Shown here: positions 4,881 to 21,736 of the stretch, piece by piece
Numbering within the stretch: the stretch's first letter is position 1
Layout: each line of letters starts with the position of its first letter
Source of the DNA: a virus
Lineage: Duplodnaviria; Caudoviricetes
DNA: 35,863 bases
Virus record (IMG/VR): IMGVR_UViG_3300015203_000018
Coordinates: 1 to 35,863 of that record
Strand: one strand, 5' to 3'
Notes under the pieces: model-generated
The model's input: the letters and a program-made list of their open reading frames with translations, nothing else
Databases searched by the model: none
What the model was told of the DNA's origin: nothing
Position numbers and translations under genes: made by a program

Positions 4881-6812
4881 TTAAGTTTTCGCTTCGCCGT
4901 ATCTAATTGCTGTGCCGCAAGAAACACCTAACGGCAACCCCGGTAGGCAGTCTGGTGTATTGCCCATAATCCTACTAGCGGTTTCTATAAACAGCTTCTC
5001 GCTACCCTCTGGTACCATACATACAAGTTCATCGTATGTAGTCATTACTACTCGGAATATCTTATTAAGCAGTACCTTATGGGTTTTCATTATCCAAGCC
5101 GATAGGGCTTGACAGATATTCTCCGTGACCTTACCCCCAAACAGCTTAACACACTTCCCACCGTCTAGGTAGGTAAGCTGCCCCTCTGGGTCTTTAGCTA
5201 AACCGGGATACTTAATGTAGAGTCCGCCCGGTAGTCTAATACCCGGCGACTTAAATAACGGTTCGTACCCTGCGTATACTATCGGCGTACCTGTAAATGG
5301 AAGCGCTAATTCTTCATCTACGTTACCGTCTAGCAGCGTGTTAACTGCTAGGTTTGCCTGCTTCCAGAATTTAACTACTCCCTTGTAGGTCTGCCTATAC
5401 AGCCTAACGATACTCTCAGCAAACTCTGGCGTTATATTCTTGATACCGCTAGACTTACAATACTCAATAAATCGTGCGGCCCCCATACCGTAGCCTAGTC
5501 CTAGTACGGCTGACTTAGCTATCTGTCTTTCTGCTGGGTGTGTGGCTTCGCTAATCTCTATACCGTAAATCTTAGTACCGAAATATGCATAGATATCGCC
5601 GCCTTCCGCCATTAGTTTTAGCGACTTTGCTTCTTCGCTATCTGGCCCAGCTAATTGCATTCCTAGCCATAGTACTAGCCTGCATTCAATCTGCTTATAG
5701 TCGGCTACTCCTAGTGTGTATGGGTCGGGGGCGTAGATCGCCTTCCGTAGCGTTCCCTTGCGTTTTAGGTTCATGGGGTTGCCCCCGCCGCCATCGTTGC
5801 CGCTGTAGCGCTGCGTGACCTTAGCGCCCGCGTAGTTGTATCCTACAGGCCATAGCCCCCGGCCTGCCGCGTCCCGGTACCGAACGGCCCGCGTTTCTTC
5901 AATGGTACTCTTTAACTCTAGTCGTGCAGCGACTAACGCCTGTACGTCTGGATCGTCATGCTCTAGTAAAGCCTTATGCGCTTCGTCTGTCTTAGCGAAT
6001 GCGTAGGATATTTTACCTGTCTTAGCGGATATCTTCGTAGGCGGTGTGACGCCTAGATTCTCTAAGGCTTCTGCATACTGATTATTAGACATAAGCATAT
6101 CGCGGGACGTAAGCCCTGCATTAGCTAATGCGTCTATTTTATTCTGTTTTACTTCCTCTATATAGCTATCCAGCATATCCCCATCAAGGTATAGCTGCGG
6201 GTCGGTGAACGCTCGTATTGTCCAGTCCAAAGATGATAGTTCTTCCTTTGGGAAGTACGGCATTAACTTCCTAAATATGGCGTTAGTTAGTACTACGTCA
6301 CCCGCCTCTAGCATTTGCTTCTGCTCGTTCCACCGTGGCTCACCAATGGTGTAGTCGGCTAGCCTATCTTCGATATGCTGCGGAAGGTCGCGGTAGTTAT
6401 ACGCCTTAGCTAACTCGTCCATCTTGGTCATGCCGCAAAGCTTCTCGGCCACGTACTTTAATCCGTGCCTAGCTAACTGCGGGCCTAGCAGCGCTCTACT
6501 TAAGCCTAGTGTATCTATATACAGCTTCGGGTATATACCGTAATGGTGCGCTAGGATAAAGCCATCGAATTGTAAGTTATGGCCTACTAGCGCGCATTCC
6601 TCTAGCTTCAGTCTACGTAGCACTGTCTCTGCGTGCCTGTGCGTAACCCACTTCGCAGGGCCACAGTTAATACTAACCCCGAAACCGTGAAGCTTAAACC
6701 GTTCGTCGCGTACATACTTCTCGGTAGTCATATCCTTATTGGATAGACTATAGCCGTCGCCGTAGAATGTTTCTATATCGCAGGTTATGACTCGCACGGA
6801 CAAAGCTCCCAT
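4881..6812 (-). CDS. polA: family A DNA polymerase with 3'-5' exonuclease domain
   Basis: Exo I CDIET, Exo II HNLQFD, motif A DYKQIECR, motif B RQIAKSAVLGLGYG, motif C TTYDELV. The true start may be GTG 6797, which follows GGAG. Confidence 0.95.
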   Translation of the reverse strand: MGALSVRVITCDIETFYGDGYSLSNKDMTTEKYVRDERFKLHGFGVSINCGPAKWVTHRHAETVLRRLKLEECALVGHNLQFDGFILAHHYGIYPKLYIDTLGLSRALLGPQLARHGLKYVAEKLCGMTKMDELAKAYNYRDLPQHIEDRLADYTIGEPRWNEQKQMLEAGDVVLTNAIFRKLMPYFPKEELSSLDWTIRAFTDPQLYLDGDMLDSYIEEVKQNKIDALANAGLTSRDMLMSNNQYAEALENLGVTPPTKISAKTGKISYAFAKTDEAHKALLEHDDPDVQALVAARLELKSTIEETRAVRYRDAAGRGLWPVGYNYAGAKVTQRYSGNDGGGGNPMNLKRKGTLRKAIYAPDPYTLGVADYKQIECRLVLWLGMQLAGPDSEEAKSLKLMAEGGDIYAYFGTKIYGIEISEATHPAERQIAKSAVLGLGYGMGAARFIEYCKSSGIKNITPEFAESIVRLYRQTYKGVVKFWKQANLAVNTLLDGNVDEELALPFTGTPIVYAGYEPLFKSPGIRLPGGLYIKYPGLAKDPEGQLTYLDGGKCVKLFGGKVTENICQALSAWIMKTHKVLLNKIFRVVMTTYDELVCMVPEGSEKLFIETASRIMGNTPDCLPGLPLGVSCGTAIRYGEAKT

Positions 6813-8485: not shown

Positions 8486-8560
8486 TGGTGCGTCCGGTAG
8501 GTGTCGAACCTACGACCCTCGCCGTGTAAAGGCGATGCTCTACCACTGAGCTACGAACGC
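8486..8560 (-). tRNA. tRNA-Val(UAC)
   Basis: GCGTTCG acceptor, D-loop TAGCTCAGTGGTAGAGC, anticodon arm TCGCC-TTTACAC-GGCGA, GGTTCGA T-loop, encoded CCA. Confidence 0.95.
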
Positions 8561-8561
8561 T

Positions 8562-8646
8562 TGGTGGGCATGGTCGGAATCGAACCGACACGTATTACTA
8601 CGGCAGATTTTAAGTCTGCTGCGTCTACCTATTCCGCCACACGCCC
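8562..8646 (-). tRNA. tRNA-Leu(UAA)
   Basis: GGGCGTG acceptor, TGGCGGAATAGGTAGACGC, anticodon arm GCAGA-CTTAAAA-TCTGC, long variable arm, GGTTCGATTCC, CCA; 85 nt. Confidence 0.95.
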
Positions 8647-12202: not shown

Positions 12203-12278
12203 TGGTGGGCCAGTCTGGAATCGAACCAGAATCAATCCGTTATGAGCGGAACGCTTGTAACCAATAAGCTACAGGCCC
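12203..12278 (-). tRNA. tRNA(CAU), probably lysidine-type tRNA-Ile2 reading AUA
   Basis: GGGCCTG acceptor with C4-G69 and C5-G68 (TilS determinants), anticodon loop CTCATAA, GGTTCGATTCC, CCA. It lacks the initiator GGG/CCC anticodon stem. Confidence 0.9.
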
Positions 12279-16424: not shown

Positions 16425-16813
16425 TATTTAATCCTCCATGCTTGTGCGCCATTGGTAAAGTGAATCTCGTTGTTGGGGGTGCGTACGCAATACCCGAATG
16501 CTACTATAGCGCGTACGCTCTCTAGCGTCAAGTCCGTGCCTACGCTCTCGCCCTCTTTATCTGTCGCTAGTATCAAGCCCTTGCCTGCCAGATACGCGGG
16601 GTTATCTCCGTCTACGCGAAACATGCCTACGTCGCGGGCCTTGCCATTAAGTAAACCCTCGTCGTCTACGTAGATAGTATTCTCGGCCTTATCTCCTAGT
16701 CTAACACAATCGAAACATGCTGCATCTATAAGTCTATAGATATGCTTATAGTCTCCGTTCCATTCGACCTCTGTTACTGTTTCGTCTTGGGGATTGATTA
16801 GTATTGCGCGCAT
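16424..16813 (-). CDS. DUF3846-like protein
   Basis: MRAILINP...IYVDDEGLL...LAGKGLILATDKEGES. Confidence 0.75.
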   Translation of the reverse strand: MRAILINPQDETVTEVEWNGDYKHIYRLIDAACFDCVRLGDKAENTIYVDDEGLLNGKARDVGMFRVDGDNPAYLAGKGLILATDKEGESVGTDLTLESVRAIVAFGYCVRTPNNEIHFTNGAQAWRIK

Positions 16814-16886: not shown

Positions 16887-17819
16887 TTATAGCTCTGTAT
16901 CTATATGCCGCTGCTTCTCTAGCTGCCTATTAACCCATGCTACCGGGTCGGTCGTAAGTATATGCTCGTCTACTAACCCGGCCCCTTGTATAACTATATC
17001 TTGCGGCGCTAGGTTTAGTACTGTGCGTATCATCTTCTCGCGTTCATCCCAATGGTCGTACGTATTCCAGCACCAGCCCCCGGTTAGGCGTCCCTCGCCC
17101 AGTGTCATACGCATATGCTCAAAGAAAATGTTGCGCTTAAACTGGCGGCTAGTGAATACTGCGACGCACTCGGCTAGGCTAATAGGGCTGCACCCCATCC
17201 TAATCATGCCTGCCGATATAGGCCCGATGCTAGTTTTCTGATTCATCCACGTAGAATATAACTCAACTGGCCTAGTCTCGCTTAGTTTCATAACTAGCGC
17301 CGCGATAGCCGCGCCTTGCGTTGCGATAGTGTATTCACTAATACCACCCGATACCATTATCTCAACACATACCCTAATCGGGCTGTTATCATCCTCGCGT
17401 TCCGTCCTTGCCCGCATACAATCGGGCGCACCTGCTAGATAGTCCGGTACTACGGGGTATGCCCCGTATACGCTAGGCGTCCATGCTTGCTGCGTTCTGT
17501 CATGGATAGCCGCGTCTACCTTATCCACTAACGCTTGCGCTCGTATGTATTCCCTATCGCTTTTCTCTGCACCGCGACTAACATACTTAATCGCTTCGCT
17601 TAGGGTGCAAGCCGCACTCCAATTACTTTCCCTAGAGTACTCCCCAGTACCCCTAGCCGCTACAGTTAGGAATTCGTCTAGTGAAGCGTACGCATTAAAC
17701 CGTACTTCTTCACCCCTAACCTGCTTCACTACCTGCGGCGCTAGCATAACTAGCGGACGTAAATCCTCCCGGTATACGGTAGGCTTGCTTACTGTGCGGT
17801 ATCGTTTACGGTATGCCAT
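16887..17819 (-). CDS. AAA-ATPase partner protein (vWA/CobT-like)
   Basis: GAYPVVPDYLAGAPDCM followed by a beta-alpha unit (IRVCVEIMVSGG...GAAIAALV...PVELY); lies directly downstream of the MoxR-type ATPase. Confidence 0.65.
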   Translation of the reverse strand: MAYRKRYRTVSKPTVYREDLRPLVMLAPQVVKQVRGEEVRFNAYASLDEFLTVAARGTGEYSRESNWSAACTLSEAIKYVSRGAEKSDREYIRAQALVDKVDAAIHDRTQQAWTPSVYGAYPVVPDYLAGAPDCMRARTEREDDNSPIRVCVEIMVSGGISEYTIATQGAAIAALVMKLSETRPVELYSTWMNQKTSIGPISAGMIRMGCSPISLAECVAVFTSRQFKRNIFFEHMRMTLGEGRLTGGWCWNTYDHWDEREKMIRTVLNLAPQDIVIQGAGLVDEHILTTDPVAWVNRQLEKQRHIDTEL

Positions 17820-17844: not shown

Positions 17845-19218
17845 CTAACACCGCGCCTGCACTTGGCGCACCTGTTCGGCAGACAGTCCTTTAAACACCA
17901 CCGATTGTAGCACTTCCGATTCTGGCACGCCATCCTTCAACAGTACCGCGCCACGGATACTAGCACGCGGGCTGACTACATGCTTAATGCCGCAGTCATG
18001 CACCGCTCGCCTGATGGTCTGCACCTTACTAACCCAATAATCATTACCGGCAAGCGTACGCTCGAACGCTTCATCATAGTCCCACGTAAGGGTAATAAAC
18101 CTGTCAAGCGTAGCAGCGTCTAACTTATTGCGGCCTACGTACTCATGCGTTGCGCCTGTCCCATACGTATTACCTGCGGCAATGATTATACAGTCGGGGT
18201 GCCTTGTCACCATCTCATCCCCGAATATACAGAACCCGTTCTCTAACGCGGCCTGCATGGCTACATATGCGAAGGGGTTGCCGCCGTCTATTTCATCCAC
18301 AAGAAATACCCCGCCGTACTTAAACACTTTATAGAATGCGGTTTCGACAAACTCGCCTAGTGCATTCTTAAATCCTAGCATCTTGTATTCCGTATCCACT
18401 GCACCGGTATAGTAGAACGGCAAGCCTAGCGCAGTCGCTACTGATTGCGCTGCCGTAGTCTTACCGCTACCCGTTGGCCCCGGTATCAGTACCGGAAACA
18501 CGAAACCCTTATAGTCGCGTTGCTGGCAGTAAGTAAGTAACCGTGGGAATGTCTTGTGCTGTACCCCTAAGTCTACCGCTGGTCTACTTTCATCCGCTAC
18601 CTGCACTACGATACGTTGCGGCCTATCTACTCCCCGCAATTCTTCCCGCACTATCTCGCGGATTGTGTCATGGTCTATATCGCCAACCCCTAACGCATCG
18701 CGTAGCACTTGCGCTAGCGCATCATTGCCAACGGGGTTATTAGCTTGCGGTGCTACATGCTTCGTTGCGGGTTTAGCTTGCGGTGCTACATGCTTCGTTG
18801 CGGGTTTAGCTTGCGGCTCTGCATCCGGCTCTGCATCCGGCATAGGCCTATCCCGACGCACTGTTGGCGTTGCCGCCGCAGGATGGTACGCATCCTGATA
18901 CTGTGAAGCTTGCGCTTGTCCTTCCGGCGTTCCCACGTTATTAAAAATGGTCATGGGTTTACCGGACGTTGCGCGGTTACGGTAAGACTCCGCACGTTGT
19001 TCCAGCGGCGGCAAGGCTGTTTCGATTGCCGCCCTATGCTGCGGATACGTTGCGACTAGCCATTGTGCGAAGTGCGCCTTGCGCGGAGTCTCAAAACGAG
19101 TCTGCCAGTTAACCCGCACTTGGCATACGTCTAATGCTAGCTTTTCGATATCGCCTGTAATGCAGTTAGCAATGCGGTGCGCGAGTGTATCAGTGAAGTT
19201 AAAATTAATGGTAGGCAT
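17845..19218 (-). CDS. MoxR/CobS-like AAA+ ATPase
   Basis: Walker A GPTGSGKT, Walker B FLVDEID, AAGNT, LDAATLDRF, SPRAS. Confidence 0.9.
   Translation of the reverse strand: MPTINFNFTDTLAHRIANCITGDIEKLALDVCQVRVNWQTRFETPRKAHFAQWLVATYPQHRAAIETALPPLEQRAESYRNRATSGKPMTIFNNVGTPEGQAQASQYQDAYHPAAATPTVRRDRPMPDAEPDAEPQAKPATKHVAPQAKPATKHVAPQANNPVGNDALAQVLRDALGVGDIDHDTIREIVREELRGVDRPQRIVVQVADESRPAVDLGVQHKTFPRLLTYCQQRDYKGFVFPVLIPGPTGSGKTTAAQSVATALGLPFYYTGAVDTEYKMLGFKNALGEFVETAFYKVFKYGGVFLVDEIDGGNPFAYVAMQAALENGFCIFGDEMVTRHPDCIIIAAGNTYGTGATHEYVGRNKLDAATLDRFITLTWDYDEAFERTLAGNDYWVSKVQTIRRAVHDCGIKHVVSPRASIRGAVLLKDGVPESEVLQSVVFKGLSAEQVRQVQARC
18740..18841. repeat. 33-bp x2.3 and 12-bp x2 in-frame tandem repeats in the ATPase linker
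   Basis: Encode PDAEPDAE and (PQAKPATKHVA)x2. Confidence 0.9.
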
Positions 19219-19307: not shown

Positions 19308-19499
19308 TTAAATATCGTTAGCGTAGTCCGTAATACGGACGGCCCTATCGTAGTCCTTTACCTGCCGCGTGTCAATCTTGTGCCGCTCTATCTCGCGGTA
19401 CTGCGCGTGCCTTGTTTCCATCCGTGCGCCACGGTCTAGCCTTACTGCGCGGTGCGCCTTGTTAGGGGTTAAGCAGCCCGCTAATGTTAGGTTACGCAT
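19308..19499 (-). CDS. small basic hypothetical protein
   Basis: ATG 19499 follows an AAGGAA RBS just downstream of the ribozyme. Confidence 0.6.
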   Translation of the reverse strand: MRNLTLAGCLTPNKAHRAVRLDRGARMETRHAQYREIERHKIDTRQVKDYDRAVRITDYANDI

Positions 19500-19519
19500 G
19501 ATGATAGTTCCTTGTGTCG

Positions 19520-19589
19520 GCAAGCTGGCCTTATCAGCGTGAGCCTTACTCACGGACAGTAGCAGGGTTACTGCTACTGTTTCGGCCTG
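19520..19589 (-). ncRNA. type II hammerhead ribozyme with variant core CUGAUAA
   Basis: GGCC-GAAAC-AGTAGCAG-TAACC-CTGCTACT-GTC^-CGTGAG-TAAGG-CTCACG-CTGATAA-GGCC-AGCTTGC. Stems I-III are perfect, and loop I can pair with the 3' tail. Confidence 0.88.
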
Positions 19590-19593
19590 TTTG

Positions 19594-20709
19594 TTAGTAT
19601 GTGAAGCCATAGTTACTACCGCAGTTACCCGCGTACCATGCGCGGTGCTGTATATTCTTTGCAAACTTCCGATACCGTTTAACTGGCAACCCTAGTGCCG
19701 CGATAAACTCTAGGAAGCGTTTAGTATCATATTGCCAGTCATTATCGGTAGTCCTGCTACCTGTTGGCAAGTCACGCTCGTATACCGGCAGACTGTAATC
19801 ATTATCCGCGATACGCTTTTCGATCATAGCGCAGTACGCGATAACGAAACTAATGTATAGCTCGTAATCCTTTACCTGCTTAGGTGCTTGAAAACATCTA
19901 AACTCTAACGTACCGCCACCATGATACGAAGTGCGTAGTATTCTACAATTGCCCGCACAGTCCATCCTACCCTGTATATCCAGCAAGCTTTTCGGCTTCG
20001 CTTGCGTACCGTATATGTTTGCATCGGCCCATTGCATCGGCCTTGCATTGCGGCTATCGGCAAAGTAACTAAATGCCCTGCTAATGTATGGACGGTACAG
20101 CATATCCGCTAGCGTAGTCTGAGTAAACATGTCCGCGCTATATCCAAAGTTACTTAACCCTACATGGATATGTGCGCCACCGCCCGCTGTATGTTGGCTA
20201 GTATGCGACAATCCCGCACTTCGTATTACCTTATCCAGATAACCCGCACTTGCACTAAATGTAGCGTAGTCACTACATGGGTTAGTAGGAATCTCTACGC
20301 ATCCGCAATCTGTATCTATCCGCCAGTATCTAGCCCGGATATCATCCGGCATGTTCTCCACTAACGCATTTACTGTCCGGCGGTGATACAGCTCCATGTG
20401 GTAGTAATCCGTTGCATGTTCTCCACTATACTTAACCGGAAAAGGCGCAGTCCATGTTAGCTCTACGCCTAGTGTATGTGGGAAAGGTTGCGCAGTTTGC
20501 TCCATTGTCGCTGGTAATGGGGTTAGCTTAGTGCGCCGAATTGTGCGACGGCTTGGCGGTCGCCATTTACTACCACCGAATAGGCTAGGCCAAGTATCCG
20601 TTAGTTCAGTAAGGGTAAGGATAGGCTGTAGCCAGTCAAACCTATTGGGTTCGGTGTCCCACGGATTAACTACTGCAAGTAACTGCGGCTTGATTGTGGA
20701 AGTTTGCAT
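19594..20709 (-). CDS. putative amidoligase (COOH-NH2 ligase, glutamate-cysteine ligase fold)
   Basis: TLGVEL, DCGCVEIPT, GGAHIHVG, TLEFR. Start taken at ATG 20709 with a GGAG RBS (ORF track gives 20772). Confidence 0.8.
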   Translation of the reverse strand: MQTSTIKPQLLAVVNPWDTEPNRFDWLQPILTLTELTDTWPSLFGGSKWRPPSRRTIRRTKLTPLPATMEQTAQPFPHTLGVELTWTAPFPVKYSGEHATDYYHMELYHRRTVNALVENMPDDIRARYWRIDTDCGCVEIPTNPCSDYATFSASAGYLDKVIRSAGLSHTSQHTAGGGAHIHVGLSNFGYSADMFTQTTLADMLYRPYISRAFSYFADSRNARPMQWADANIYGTQAKPKSLLDIQGRMDCAGNCRILRTSYHGGGTLEFRCFQAPKQVKDYELYISFVIAYCAMIEKRIADNDYSLPVYERDLPTGSRTTDNDWQYDTKRFLEFIAALGLPVKRYRKFAKNIQHRAWYAGNCGSNYGFTY

Positions 20710-20743
20710 GATACTGACTCCGATTGGGTTTAGGTTGTGGGGT

Positions 20744-20956
20744 TTACTCTGCCGCGTGCCAGTCTGCCGCATTGTCTTGTGTTATGTATCCATAATCGTA
20801 TAGGCCATGCTTAATTGGGATACTGAATTGCCCCGGCCTTGTTTTCCACGTCTTTGTTTTACCGTTGCGACGTGCGCGCATAGGCGTTCCATCCGCATTA
20901 CGTACTGTGTTATGCGTAAAGCGATTCGCGATGATGCTAGTTTCGTAACTAATCAT
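20744..20956 (-). CDS. small conserved phage early protein
   Basis: RRNGKTKTWKTRP..F.IPIKHGLY; start GGAGCATTACC-ATG at 20956. Confidence 0.7.
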   Translation of the reverse strand: MISYETSIIANRFTHNTVRNADGTPMRARRNGKTKTWKTRPGQFSIPIKHGLYDYGYITQDNAADWHAAE

Positions 20957-21030: not shown

Positions 21031-21500
21031 GGAAACAGGAAACATGGCACAAGCTTGAAACGTGCTACAGATTATACGCCCCTATCCTGAAACAGGAAAC
21101 AGGGCACAAGCTTGAAACAGGAAACAAGCACGCACTAGGATGAAACAGGAAACAGCGAATTCTACAGATGGAGTTTGTAACAATGAAACAGCCGTCCTGC
21201 CTAGCTTGTAGCTTTGTAGCATCGCTGGCGACAAGGTAGGAAAGTCTTTAGAGGGTACAGATAACTGTTTCTGTTTCATTACAGTGCAAGGGTAGTGTAA
21301 GAATAGTGCGGAATAAATCATATATGCGCTGTAGTTTTCACGAAACAATGCAACAATGCTACAAACTAATAGCAGCATGGCTATCCTTGTTTCTGAACAT
21401 GCTACAAACTGAAACAAACACAATGCCGCAACACGAAACCCGCACTAATTGGAAACAGGAAACCGCGCACTAAGACGAAACAAGAAACAACGAAACAGAA
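21031..21500. repeat. array of about 20 GAAACA-like boxes (iteron- or operator-like)
   Basis: GAAACAGGAAAC doublets, GGCACAAGCTTGAAAC x2, and inverted TGTTTC copies near 21265, 21272 and 21388. Confidence 0.85.
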
Positions 21501-21529: not shown

Positions 21530-21736
21530 CTACAGGCCGCACGCTGCCATAAACCGGCCCTTGTCGAATCTAGGATTATCGCGTTGCGCGATACTAGCGA
21601 ACATATCCGCAAAATCCTTGCGCGCTGTATCTAGTACCTTATTAGCTGCGGCATGATGCTCGCTATTAACTAAGCAGTTATGCCATTTTGCCAGTTTGAT
21701 TGCCTCTGCCATTGCGATATAGTCTTTACGTGTCAT
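21530..21736 (-). CDS. small conserved phage early protein
   Basis: MTRKDY..MAEAIK...DNPRFDKGRFMAACG; GGAGTATTACC-ATG. Confidence 0.75.
   Translation of the reverse strand: MTRKDYIAMAEAIKLAKWHNCLVNSEHHAAANKVLDTARKDFADMFASIAQRDNPRFDKGRFMAACGL

Follow-up and report, generated by a model that had tools for sequence, protein, structure and literature searches.

This locus raises the question of whether a type II hammerhead ribozyme can still cut itself when A8 faces C3 in its core. Pairing between positions 3 and 8 sets the general acid in position and is regarded as essential, compensatory swaps aside; a 2007 paper by Przybilski and Hammann is reportedly the key one on 3-8 exchanges. The window (the whole stretch of DNA analysed, 35,863 nt) comes from a soil metagenome and represents a tailed phage of 35.9 kb, with terminase, portal, capsid and DNA polymerase genes. 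Three tRNA genes, Val(TAC), Leu(TAA) and Met(CAT), lie on its minus strand at 8486-8646 and 12203-12278.

The motif occupies positions 19520..19588 of the minus strand. It had been placed a few nucleotides past the stop codon of an upstream amidoligase gene, and six bases indeed separate the TAA of the amidoligase-like gene (19596-19594) from the motif. In the 5' to 3' direction, an A (19588) precedes the 5' strand of stem II (GGCC, 19584..19587). This is followed by the core segment G12-A13-A14-A15.1 (GAAA, 19580..19583), stem-loop III (19556..19580; 10 bp, 19580-71 with 19565-56, loop UAACC) and stem-loop I (19538..19554; 6 bp plus a U·G, 19554-48 with 19544-38). Stem-loop I is closed by a C1.1-G2.1 pair, and its first loop base is U (19548). 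The second core segment, C3-U4-G5-A6-U7-A8-A9 (CUGAUAA, 19531..19537), leads into the 3' strand of stem II (GGCC, 19527..19530) and the 3' tail AGCUUGC (19520..19526). The stems were assigned from sequence and fold, stem III also from its pairing probability. By analogy to the hammerhead consensus, the scissile bond is predicted after C17 (19555) of the GUC triplet, at 19555/19554, which upholds the cut initially proposed.

Three stems surround the core, with I and III closed by loops and II open. G12-A13-A14, the A15.1-U16.1 pair and an NUH triplet (GUC) are present, and C3-U4-G5-A6 and A9 are intact. The Watson-Crick pair between positions 3 and 8 is missing, as C3 (19537) faces A8 (19532) in place of G8. 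Judged from its sequence, the window copy descends from a type II hammerhead yet fails this one defining feature.

The minimum free energy fold comprises all three stems (-32.1 kcal/mol, z -3.56), and 0 of 200 shuffles were as good. Stems III and I had pairing probabilities of 0.74-1.0 whatever the context. For stem II the probability was 0.95 in 96 nt and 0.35-0.42 in a wider or transcript context. With a loose type II descriptor that left positions 7 and 8 free and required stems of 4/4/2 bp or longer, there were 3 matches in 1000 order-1 Markov genomes of the window's size and 1 in the real window. The initial description of a minus-strand motif with a CUGAUAA core, three paired stems and type II topology therefore holds. 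The Rfam hammerhead search it had proposed as a check was run and gave no match on the window (E up to 1) or on 301 nt of it (E up to 10), a miss that may reflect the model rather than the motif. A8 was also read in one contig (depth 13.6); this contig is probably the window's own source, so the agreement is not independent. It was the one match among the sequencing runs listed, which included no RNA run with the sequence.

An IMG/VR scan with positions 7 and 8 left free covered 8 of 64 parts and gave at least 132 loci (about 1000 stretches estimated). The structured loci among the matches listed comprised 120 distinct G8 sequences, three with A8 and none with C8 or U8. They fall into two classes, a compact one (17-nt stem-loop I, 4-bp stem II) and one with a stem-loop I of 22-24 nt. 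The window copy has the hallmarks of the compact class. Among the matches listed, the closing G is found in 68 of 71 compact sequences and the closing C in 66, and the first loop-I base is U in 70 of 71, as is the A before the 4-bp stem II. By this comparison, the element belongs to a common phage class of type II hammerhead motifs and is a predicted self-cutter.

It had also been proposed that loop I (GUAAG) pairs with the tail (CUUGC). The two stretches are indeed complementary, with the final G of stem I counted as part of the loop, but pairing between loop and tail is at chance in the compact class (3.20 vs 3.11 in shuffles, p 0.16, n=71, among the matches listed). In the 22-nt class, the corresponding values were 5.02 and 3.84, with 0 of 2000 shuffles as good (n=63, among the matches listed). 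The covarying pairing of loop I with the tail that marks the pseudoknotted subclass is thus not found in the window's class, and the pseudoknot was rejected for the window copy. A different contact may take its place. In types I and III, loops I and II are joined by a conserved reverse-Hoogsteen pair, according to the available text of PMC6155905, and U1.7 (19548) and A19588 could be its equivalent here.

The same scans contained phage contigs on which at least five canonical type II hammerheads stand in arrays spanning a few kb (L050-L052 in IMGVR_UViG_3300038412_000035, L065-L066 and L031). A compact-class copy with U3·G8 was seen at about 2016 (-) of L037, and a near-identical copy in L045 has C3-G8.

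The gene order around the motif was as initially described: the upstream gene is followed on the minus strand by a small ORF, an AAA ATPase gene and a partner gene. The identity of the upstream gene (19594..20772, -) is weaker than its amidoligase name implied. No Pfam or PHROG match was found for it, a PDB sequence search with its protein gave 0 matches, and Pfam on its homologues gave a faint DUF2126 signal (E 0.16) in one of them. The low-confidence model (pLDDT 48) of one homologue, P0004, best matches YbdK (E 4e-4) and also glutamine synthetases. This weak structure match points to a probable glutamine synthetase/YbdK fold, and the label amidoligase-like is modestly supported.

Downstream, a 63-aa ORF (19308..19499, -) starts 31 nt past A9 of the hammerhead; the median distance between hammerhead and ORF is 30 nt for both A8 and G8 ribozymes. 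The AAA ATPase (phrog_249, AAA_5; 17845..19218, -) and the partner protein (DUF7192, phrog_1909; 16887..17819, -) come next. A search of IMG/VR with the AAA protein found nothing. The stretch AGGAACUAUCAU (19501..19512, -) is a probable ribosome-binding region and recurs at 16812 and twice in the related phage L371 described below. As a 12-mer, AGGAACTATCAT has two copies per phage (window 19501-19512 and 16812-16823; L371 5004 and 8229). Both window copies precede start codons; one L371 copy lies past the amidoligase-like gene and is not directly followed by a start codon. A promoter and terminator scan gave 7 (6.9 expected) and 6 (4.3 expected), respectively.

Elsewhere in the early region, 18 of the 45 window copies of the hexamer TGTTTC/GAAACA are packed into 460 bp (21032-21492), and the matching region of L371 (3130-3580) has 13 copies. 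The array is possibly a set of protein-binding sites or an origin, and a TTG-started ORF inside it (21082-21423) may be spurious.

The relative L371 was found by aligning the upstream protein with its two relatives and was the one related phage among 81 candidate stretches. It is syntenic with the window (TerL 73%, AAA ATPase 52% and upstream protein 46% identical) and carries one type II hammerhead in its early region (5264-5325), which closely follows a stop codon and precedes the AAA gene. The flanks of the two copies are similar. The stems differ in sequence yet pair in both, and the core of the L371 copy is canonical (CUGACGA, with G8). Given this homologous canonical copy, the window element appears to be an inherited ribozyme, and A8 appears specific to the window's lineage as judged from the one relative compared. 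The L371 copy has a mismatch of its own, C15.2·U16.2, at a UUC site, so that a feature which may lower the rate is present in both relatives.

The arrangement of two small genes differs between L371 and the window. The 63-aa ORF is weakly similar (E 4e-5) to a 59-aa ORF before the AAA gene of L371. A 68-aa ORF of the window (21530-21736) has a homologue that lies directly before the L371 hammerhead and, in L029, neighbours canonical hammerheads. The position of the small early genes relative to the ribozyme varies between phages. Other searches added no homologue: blastn of the ribozyme region against INPHARED gave no match, and the exact stem III pattern was not found in IMG/VR. A set of 73 INPHARED records returned for the ribozyme, all partial and at 80-90% identity, was taken as chance; the best 40 of the 73 had E = 3 and lay almost all inside DNA polymerase genes.

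The recurrence of C3·A8 as a natural variant had been missed in the initial annotation. Four A8-directed scans gave 17 of 24, 17 of 28, 5 of 69 and at least 71 of 120 loci with structure, the last covering 51 of 64 parts. Together with the window there are at least 64 distinct C3·A8 sequences (63 others, of which L233 is doubtful), forming at least 35 clusters at 80% identity in phages and mobile DNA. The A8 sequences come from three collections and the G8 comparators from IMG/VR alone; U3-A8 was left out of the counts.

Other core changes on the same scaffold served as controls for mere decay. In complete IMG/VR scans with one scaffold, structured G8A amounted to 19 distinct sequences in 8 lineages, and 34 of the 40 G8A loci matching the control scaffold pattern were structured (of 52 from two IMG/VR scans). 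With G5 changed, 1 of 5 loci was structured, and with G12A 2 of 3. By lineage the comparison was 8 for A8 against 1 for G5A and 2 for G12A (8/11 vs one third, binomial p ~0.009). A tree of 104 long-stem-loop sequences, weakly resolved and built without positions 1.1, 2.1, 7 and 8 and without L233, required 24 changes between A8 and G8, of which at least 5 were forced by strong branches.

Some lineages have held A8 while their sequences diverged. A clan of 8 keeps it with 94% column identity and 176 of 176 cells paired, with a variable position 7, 5 compensatory pairs (about two events) and downstream proteins that are 43-92% identical. A gut clan of 12 rows (phages of about 17 kb and one similar sequence) shows pairing in 93.9% of cells with 4 compensatory pairs, and three A8 copies share one of its records; blastn of this clan against INPHARED gave no match. 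Both were collected with a pattern demanding an intact core. Core-independent sampling of the A8 clans returned the seed only (1 of 401 genomes each), and further searches found known copies again, so an ascertainment bias remains.

The variant is unevenly distributed between the classes. All 8 IMG/VR A8 lineages are pseudoknotted, and the ratio of pseudoknotted to compact was 28:7 in A8 clusters and 48:60 in G8 clusters (p 4e-4, among the matches listed). The C1.1-G2.1 pair, which the window copy also has, was found in 29 of 35 A8 clusters vs 51 of 108 G8 clusters (p 2e-4) and, within the pseudoknotted class, in 26 of 28 vs 24 of 48 (p 1e-4), both among the matches listed. The clusters are not fully independent, and p was 0.003 at 75% clustering. 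Mean G+C barely differed between A8 and G8 clusters. In the compact class the pair was not enriched (3 of 7 A8 vs 27 of 60 G8, among the matches listed), and all 7 compact A8 cases among the matches listed were singletons. The complete one-scaffold scans of IMG/VR gave one compact G12A and, besides the window, no compact A8. In one Acidobacteriota MAG, a compact A8 copy occurs together with a G8 paralogue whose stem-loop I is identical, which suggests a recent change from G8 to A.

As it recurs in about 35 clusters, some of which have held it long, C3·A8 probably represents natural variation that is tolerated, not mere decay. The evidence for tolerance comes from the pseudoknotted class and the compact class offers singletons only, so the window copy itself may be slow or dead.

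The change from G to A had been linked to a genome-wide bias towards TpA. The excess is real in the window (odds 1.44, with GA and TC under-represented at 0.77), but as a general cause of A8 it was rejected, since position 7 of 63 A8 sequences (among the matches listed) was split between C (28), T (20), G (10) and A (5). The TpA excess may have favoured this particular mutation in the window. In the L371 stretch, the TpA odds are only 1.06. A-to-I editing of A8 was set aside, as its sequence context differs from what we take to be the TadA motif.

The reading we favour, at about even confidence, is that the window ribozyme is slowed but active. The change of G8 to A breaks the C3-G8 pair and likely slows cutting, so that the cut after GUC probably persists at a much lower rate. 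The acid is the 2'-OH of residue 8, and the crystal structure shows stacking of C3 on 2.1 and of G8 on 1.1 (PMC11300833, in the text available). An A at position 8 would retain this 2'-OH. A weak C·A mismatch, which may be a protonated wobble, would keep the A in place with C1.1-G2.1 as a buttress, and a U1.7·A pair would serve as the tertiary contact in place of a pseudoknot. The preference for C1.1-G2.1 would then have a structural reason, as the 3-8 pair stacks on 2.1 and 1.1. All other conserved features (stems I, II and III, U1.7 and the A before stem II) are intact, and this argues for activity, as do the G8 homologue in L371, the excess of G8A over G5A and G12A, the clans with compensatory pairs, the C1.1-G2.1 preference and the ORF spacing shared by A8 and G8 ribozymes. 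The compact singletons without C1.1-G2.1 enrichment, the MAG paralogues and the low pairing probability of stem II in the transcript context argue against it. The same is true of a mutational scan of a type III hammerhead, in the available text of which every single mutant of the core motif was low in activity (PMC9901934).

Much of this evidence suits a recently inactivated ribozyme, in which G8A ended useful cleavage and the stems have yet to decay. Such a loss would explain why compact A8 cases are singletons with no excess over G12A in IMG/VR, why L371 has G8 and why a G8/A8 paralogue pair with one stem-loop I exists; it fits the weak single mutants of PMC9901934 (in the text available) and a change that makes a TpA in a TpA-rich genome. 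We consider it a serious possibility, though on the doubtful side, as the window copy has no second visible defect and G8A as a class exceeds the decay controls and persists in diverged clans. At the other extreme, C1.1-G2.1, a tertiary contact, pH or Mn2+ might compensate fully, with cleavage near normal or conditional. The deep retention of A8 in pseudoknotted clans and the neighbour-pair enrichment agree with this, and there are precedents in the accessible parts of two papers: the core variant A6C is cation-dependent (PMC7151607), and Perreault et al. argue that core variants are offset by tertiary contacts (PMC3088659). Full function is nevertheless improbable for the window, which lacks the Watson-Crick pseudoknot seen in 28 of 35 A8 clusters (among the matches listed), and the published single mutants are slow (PMC9901934, available text). 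Least probable by far is that C3·A8 is a passing intermediate between C3-G8 and U3-A8, or that the fold persists for a purpose other than catalysis, for instance protecting the 5' end of the downstream message. U3-A8 is a documented natural pair (PMC3088659, available text) and one U3·G8 copy was seen in L037, but clans hold C3 with A8 while their proteins drop to 43% identity. G5, G12 and the GUC site are kept in the clans as well, which speaks against a non-catalytic role, though the clan search pattern demanded them.

If the window copy is slowed but active, the cut likely processes no more than a fraction of the early transcript, at a point shortly before the small ORF and the AAA ATPase gene, and the 3' product would start with stem-loop I. 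RNase E prefers a 5' monophosphate, and RNase J attacks the glmS cleavage product. As glmS cleavage leads to degradation (PMC6765202, available text), stabilisation of the downstream RNA by a 5'-OH would depend on the host nucleases. Processing of polycistronic phage transcripts is a standing proposal, and what self-cleaving ribozymes do in bacteria and phages is described as still open (accessible parts of PMC3088659 and PMC6765202 for the former, of PMC6765202 for the latter).

The locus shares with the type II hammerheads of phages and prophages in the available text of PMC3088659 the topology, the GAAA/GUC/CUGA-N-N-A core and an intergenic site directly before a small phage gene. It differs from Rfam Hammerhead_II in its A8 opposite C3, its unsupported pseudoknot and the lack of an Rfam match. 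The natural variants given there by Perreault et al. are U3-A8, A6C, insertions and U15.1-A16.1. A8 is common to the window and the U3-A8 variant, but the window keeps C3 and so has a mismatch instead of a compensatory swap. The variants proposed to be slow or conditional, Bcep176 A6C and the HHmeta/HHphage insertions, likewise have one altered core position (PMC3088659 and PMC7151607, available text), whereas C3·A8 alters another position, has many origins and shows a neighbour-pair preference. No report of a natural C3·A8 core was found in the full-text literature, which mostly excludes subscription papers, or in the supplement text of Perreault et al., where the inactive variants of Figure S7 (PMC3088659) are not text-searchable.

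A wider proposal is that C3·A8 is a recurrent, selected and rate-tuned core of many phage origins that serves partial or delayed processing of early transcripts, with the window copy as one working example, enabled by C1.1-G2.1 and tertiary stabilisation and possibly pH-responsive through an A+·C wobble. We put this forward tentatively, with confidence clearly short of even. For the window copy alone the stakes are smaller, as it may be a recent loss; the significance rests mainly on the recurrent C3·A8 class and a testable context rule. Should natural C3·A8 ribozymes prove able to cut, a context clause would have to be added to the core rule, and searches for CUGANGA only would miss about 2% of the scaffold (3 of 123 among the matches listed). 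The class would then also offer natural slow variants that are ready for testing whether phages tune the rate of cleavage.
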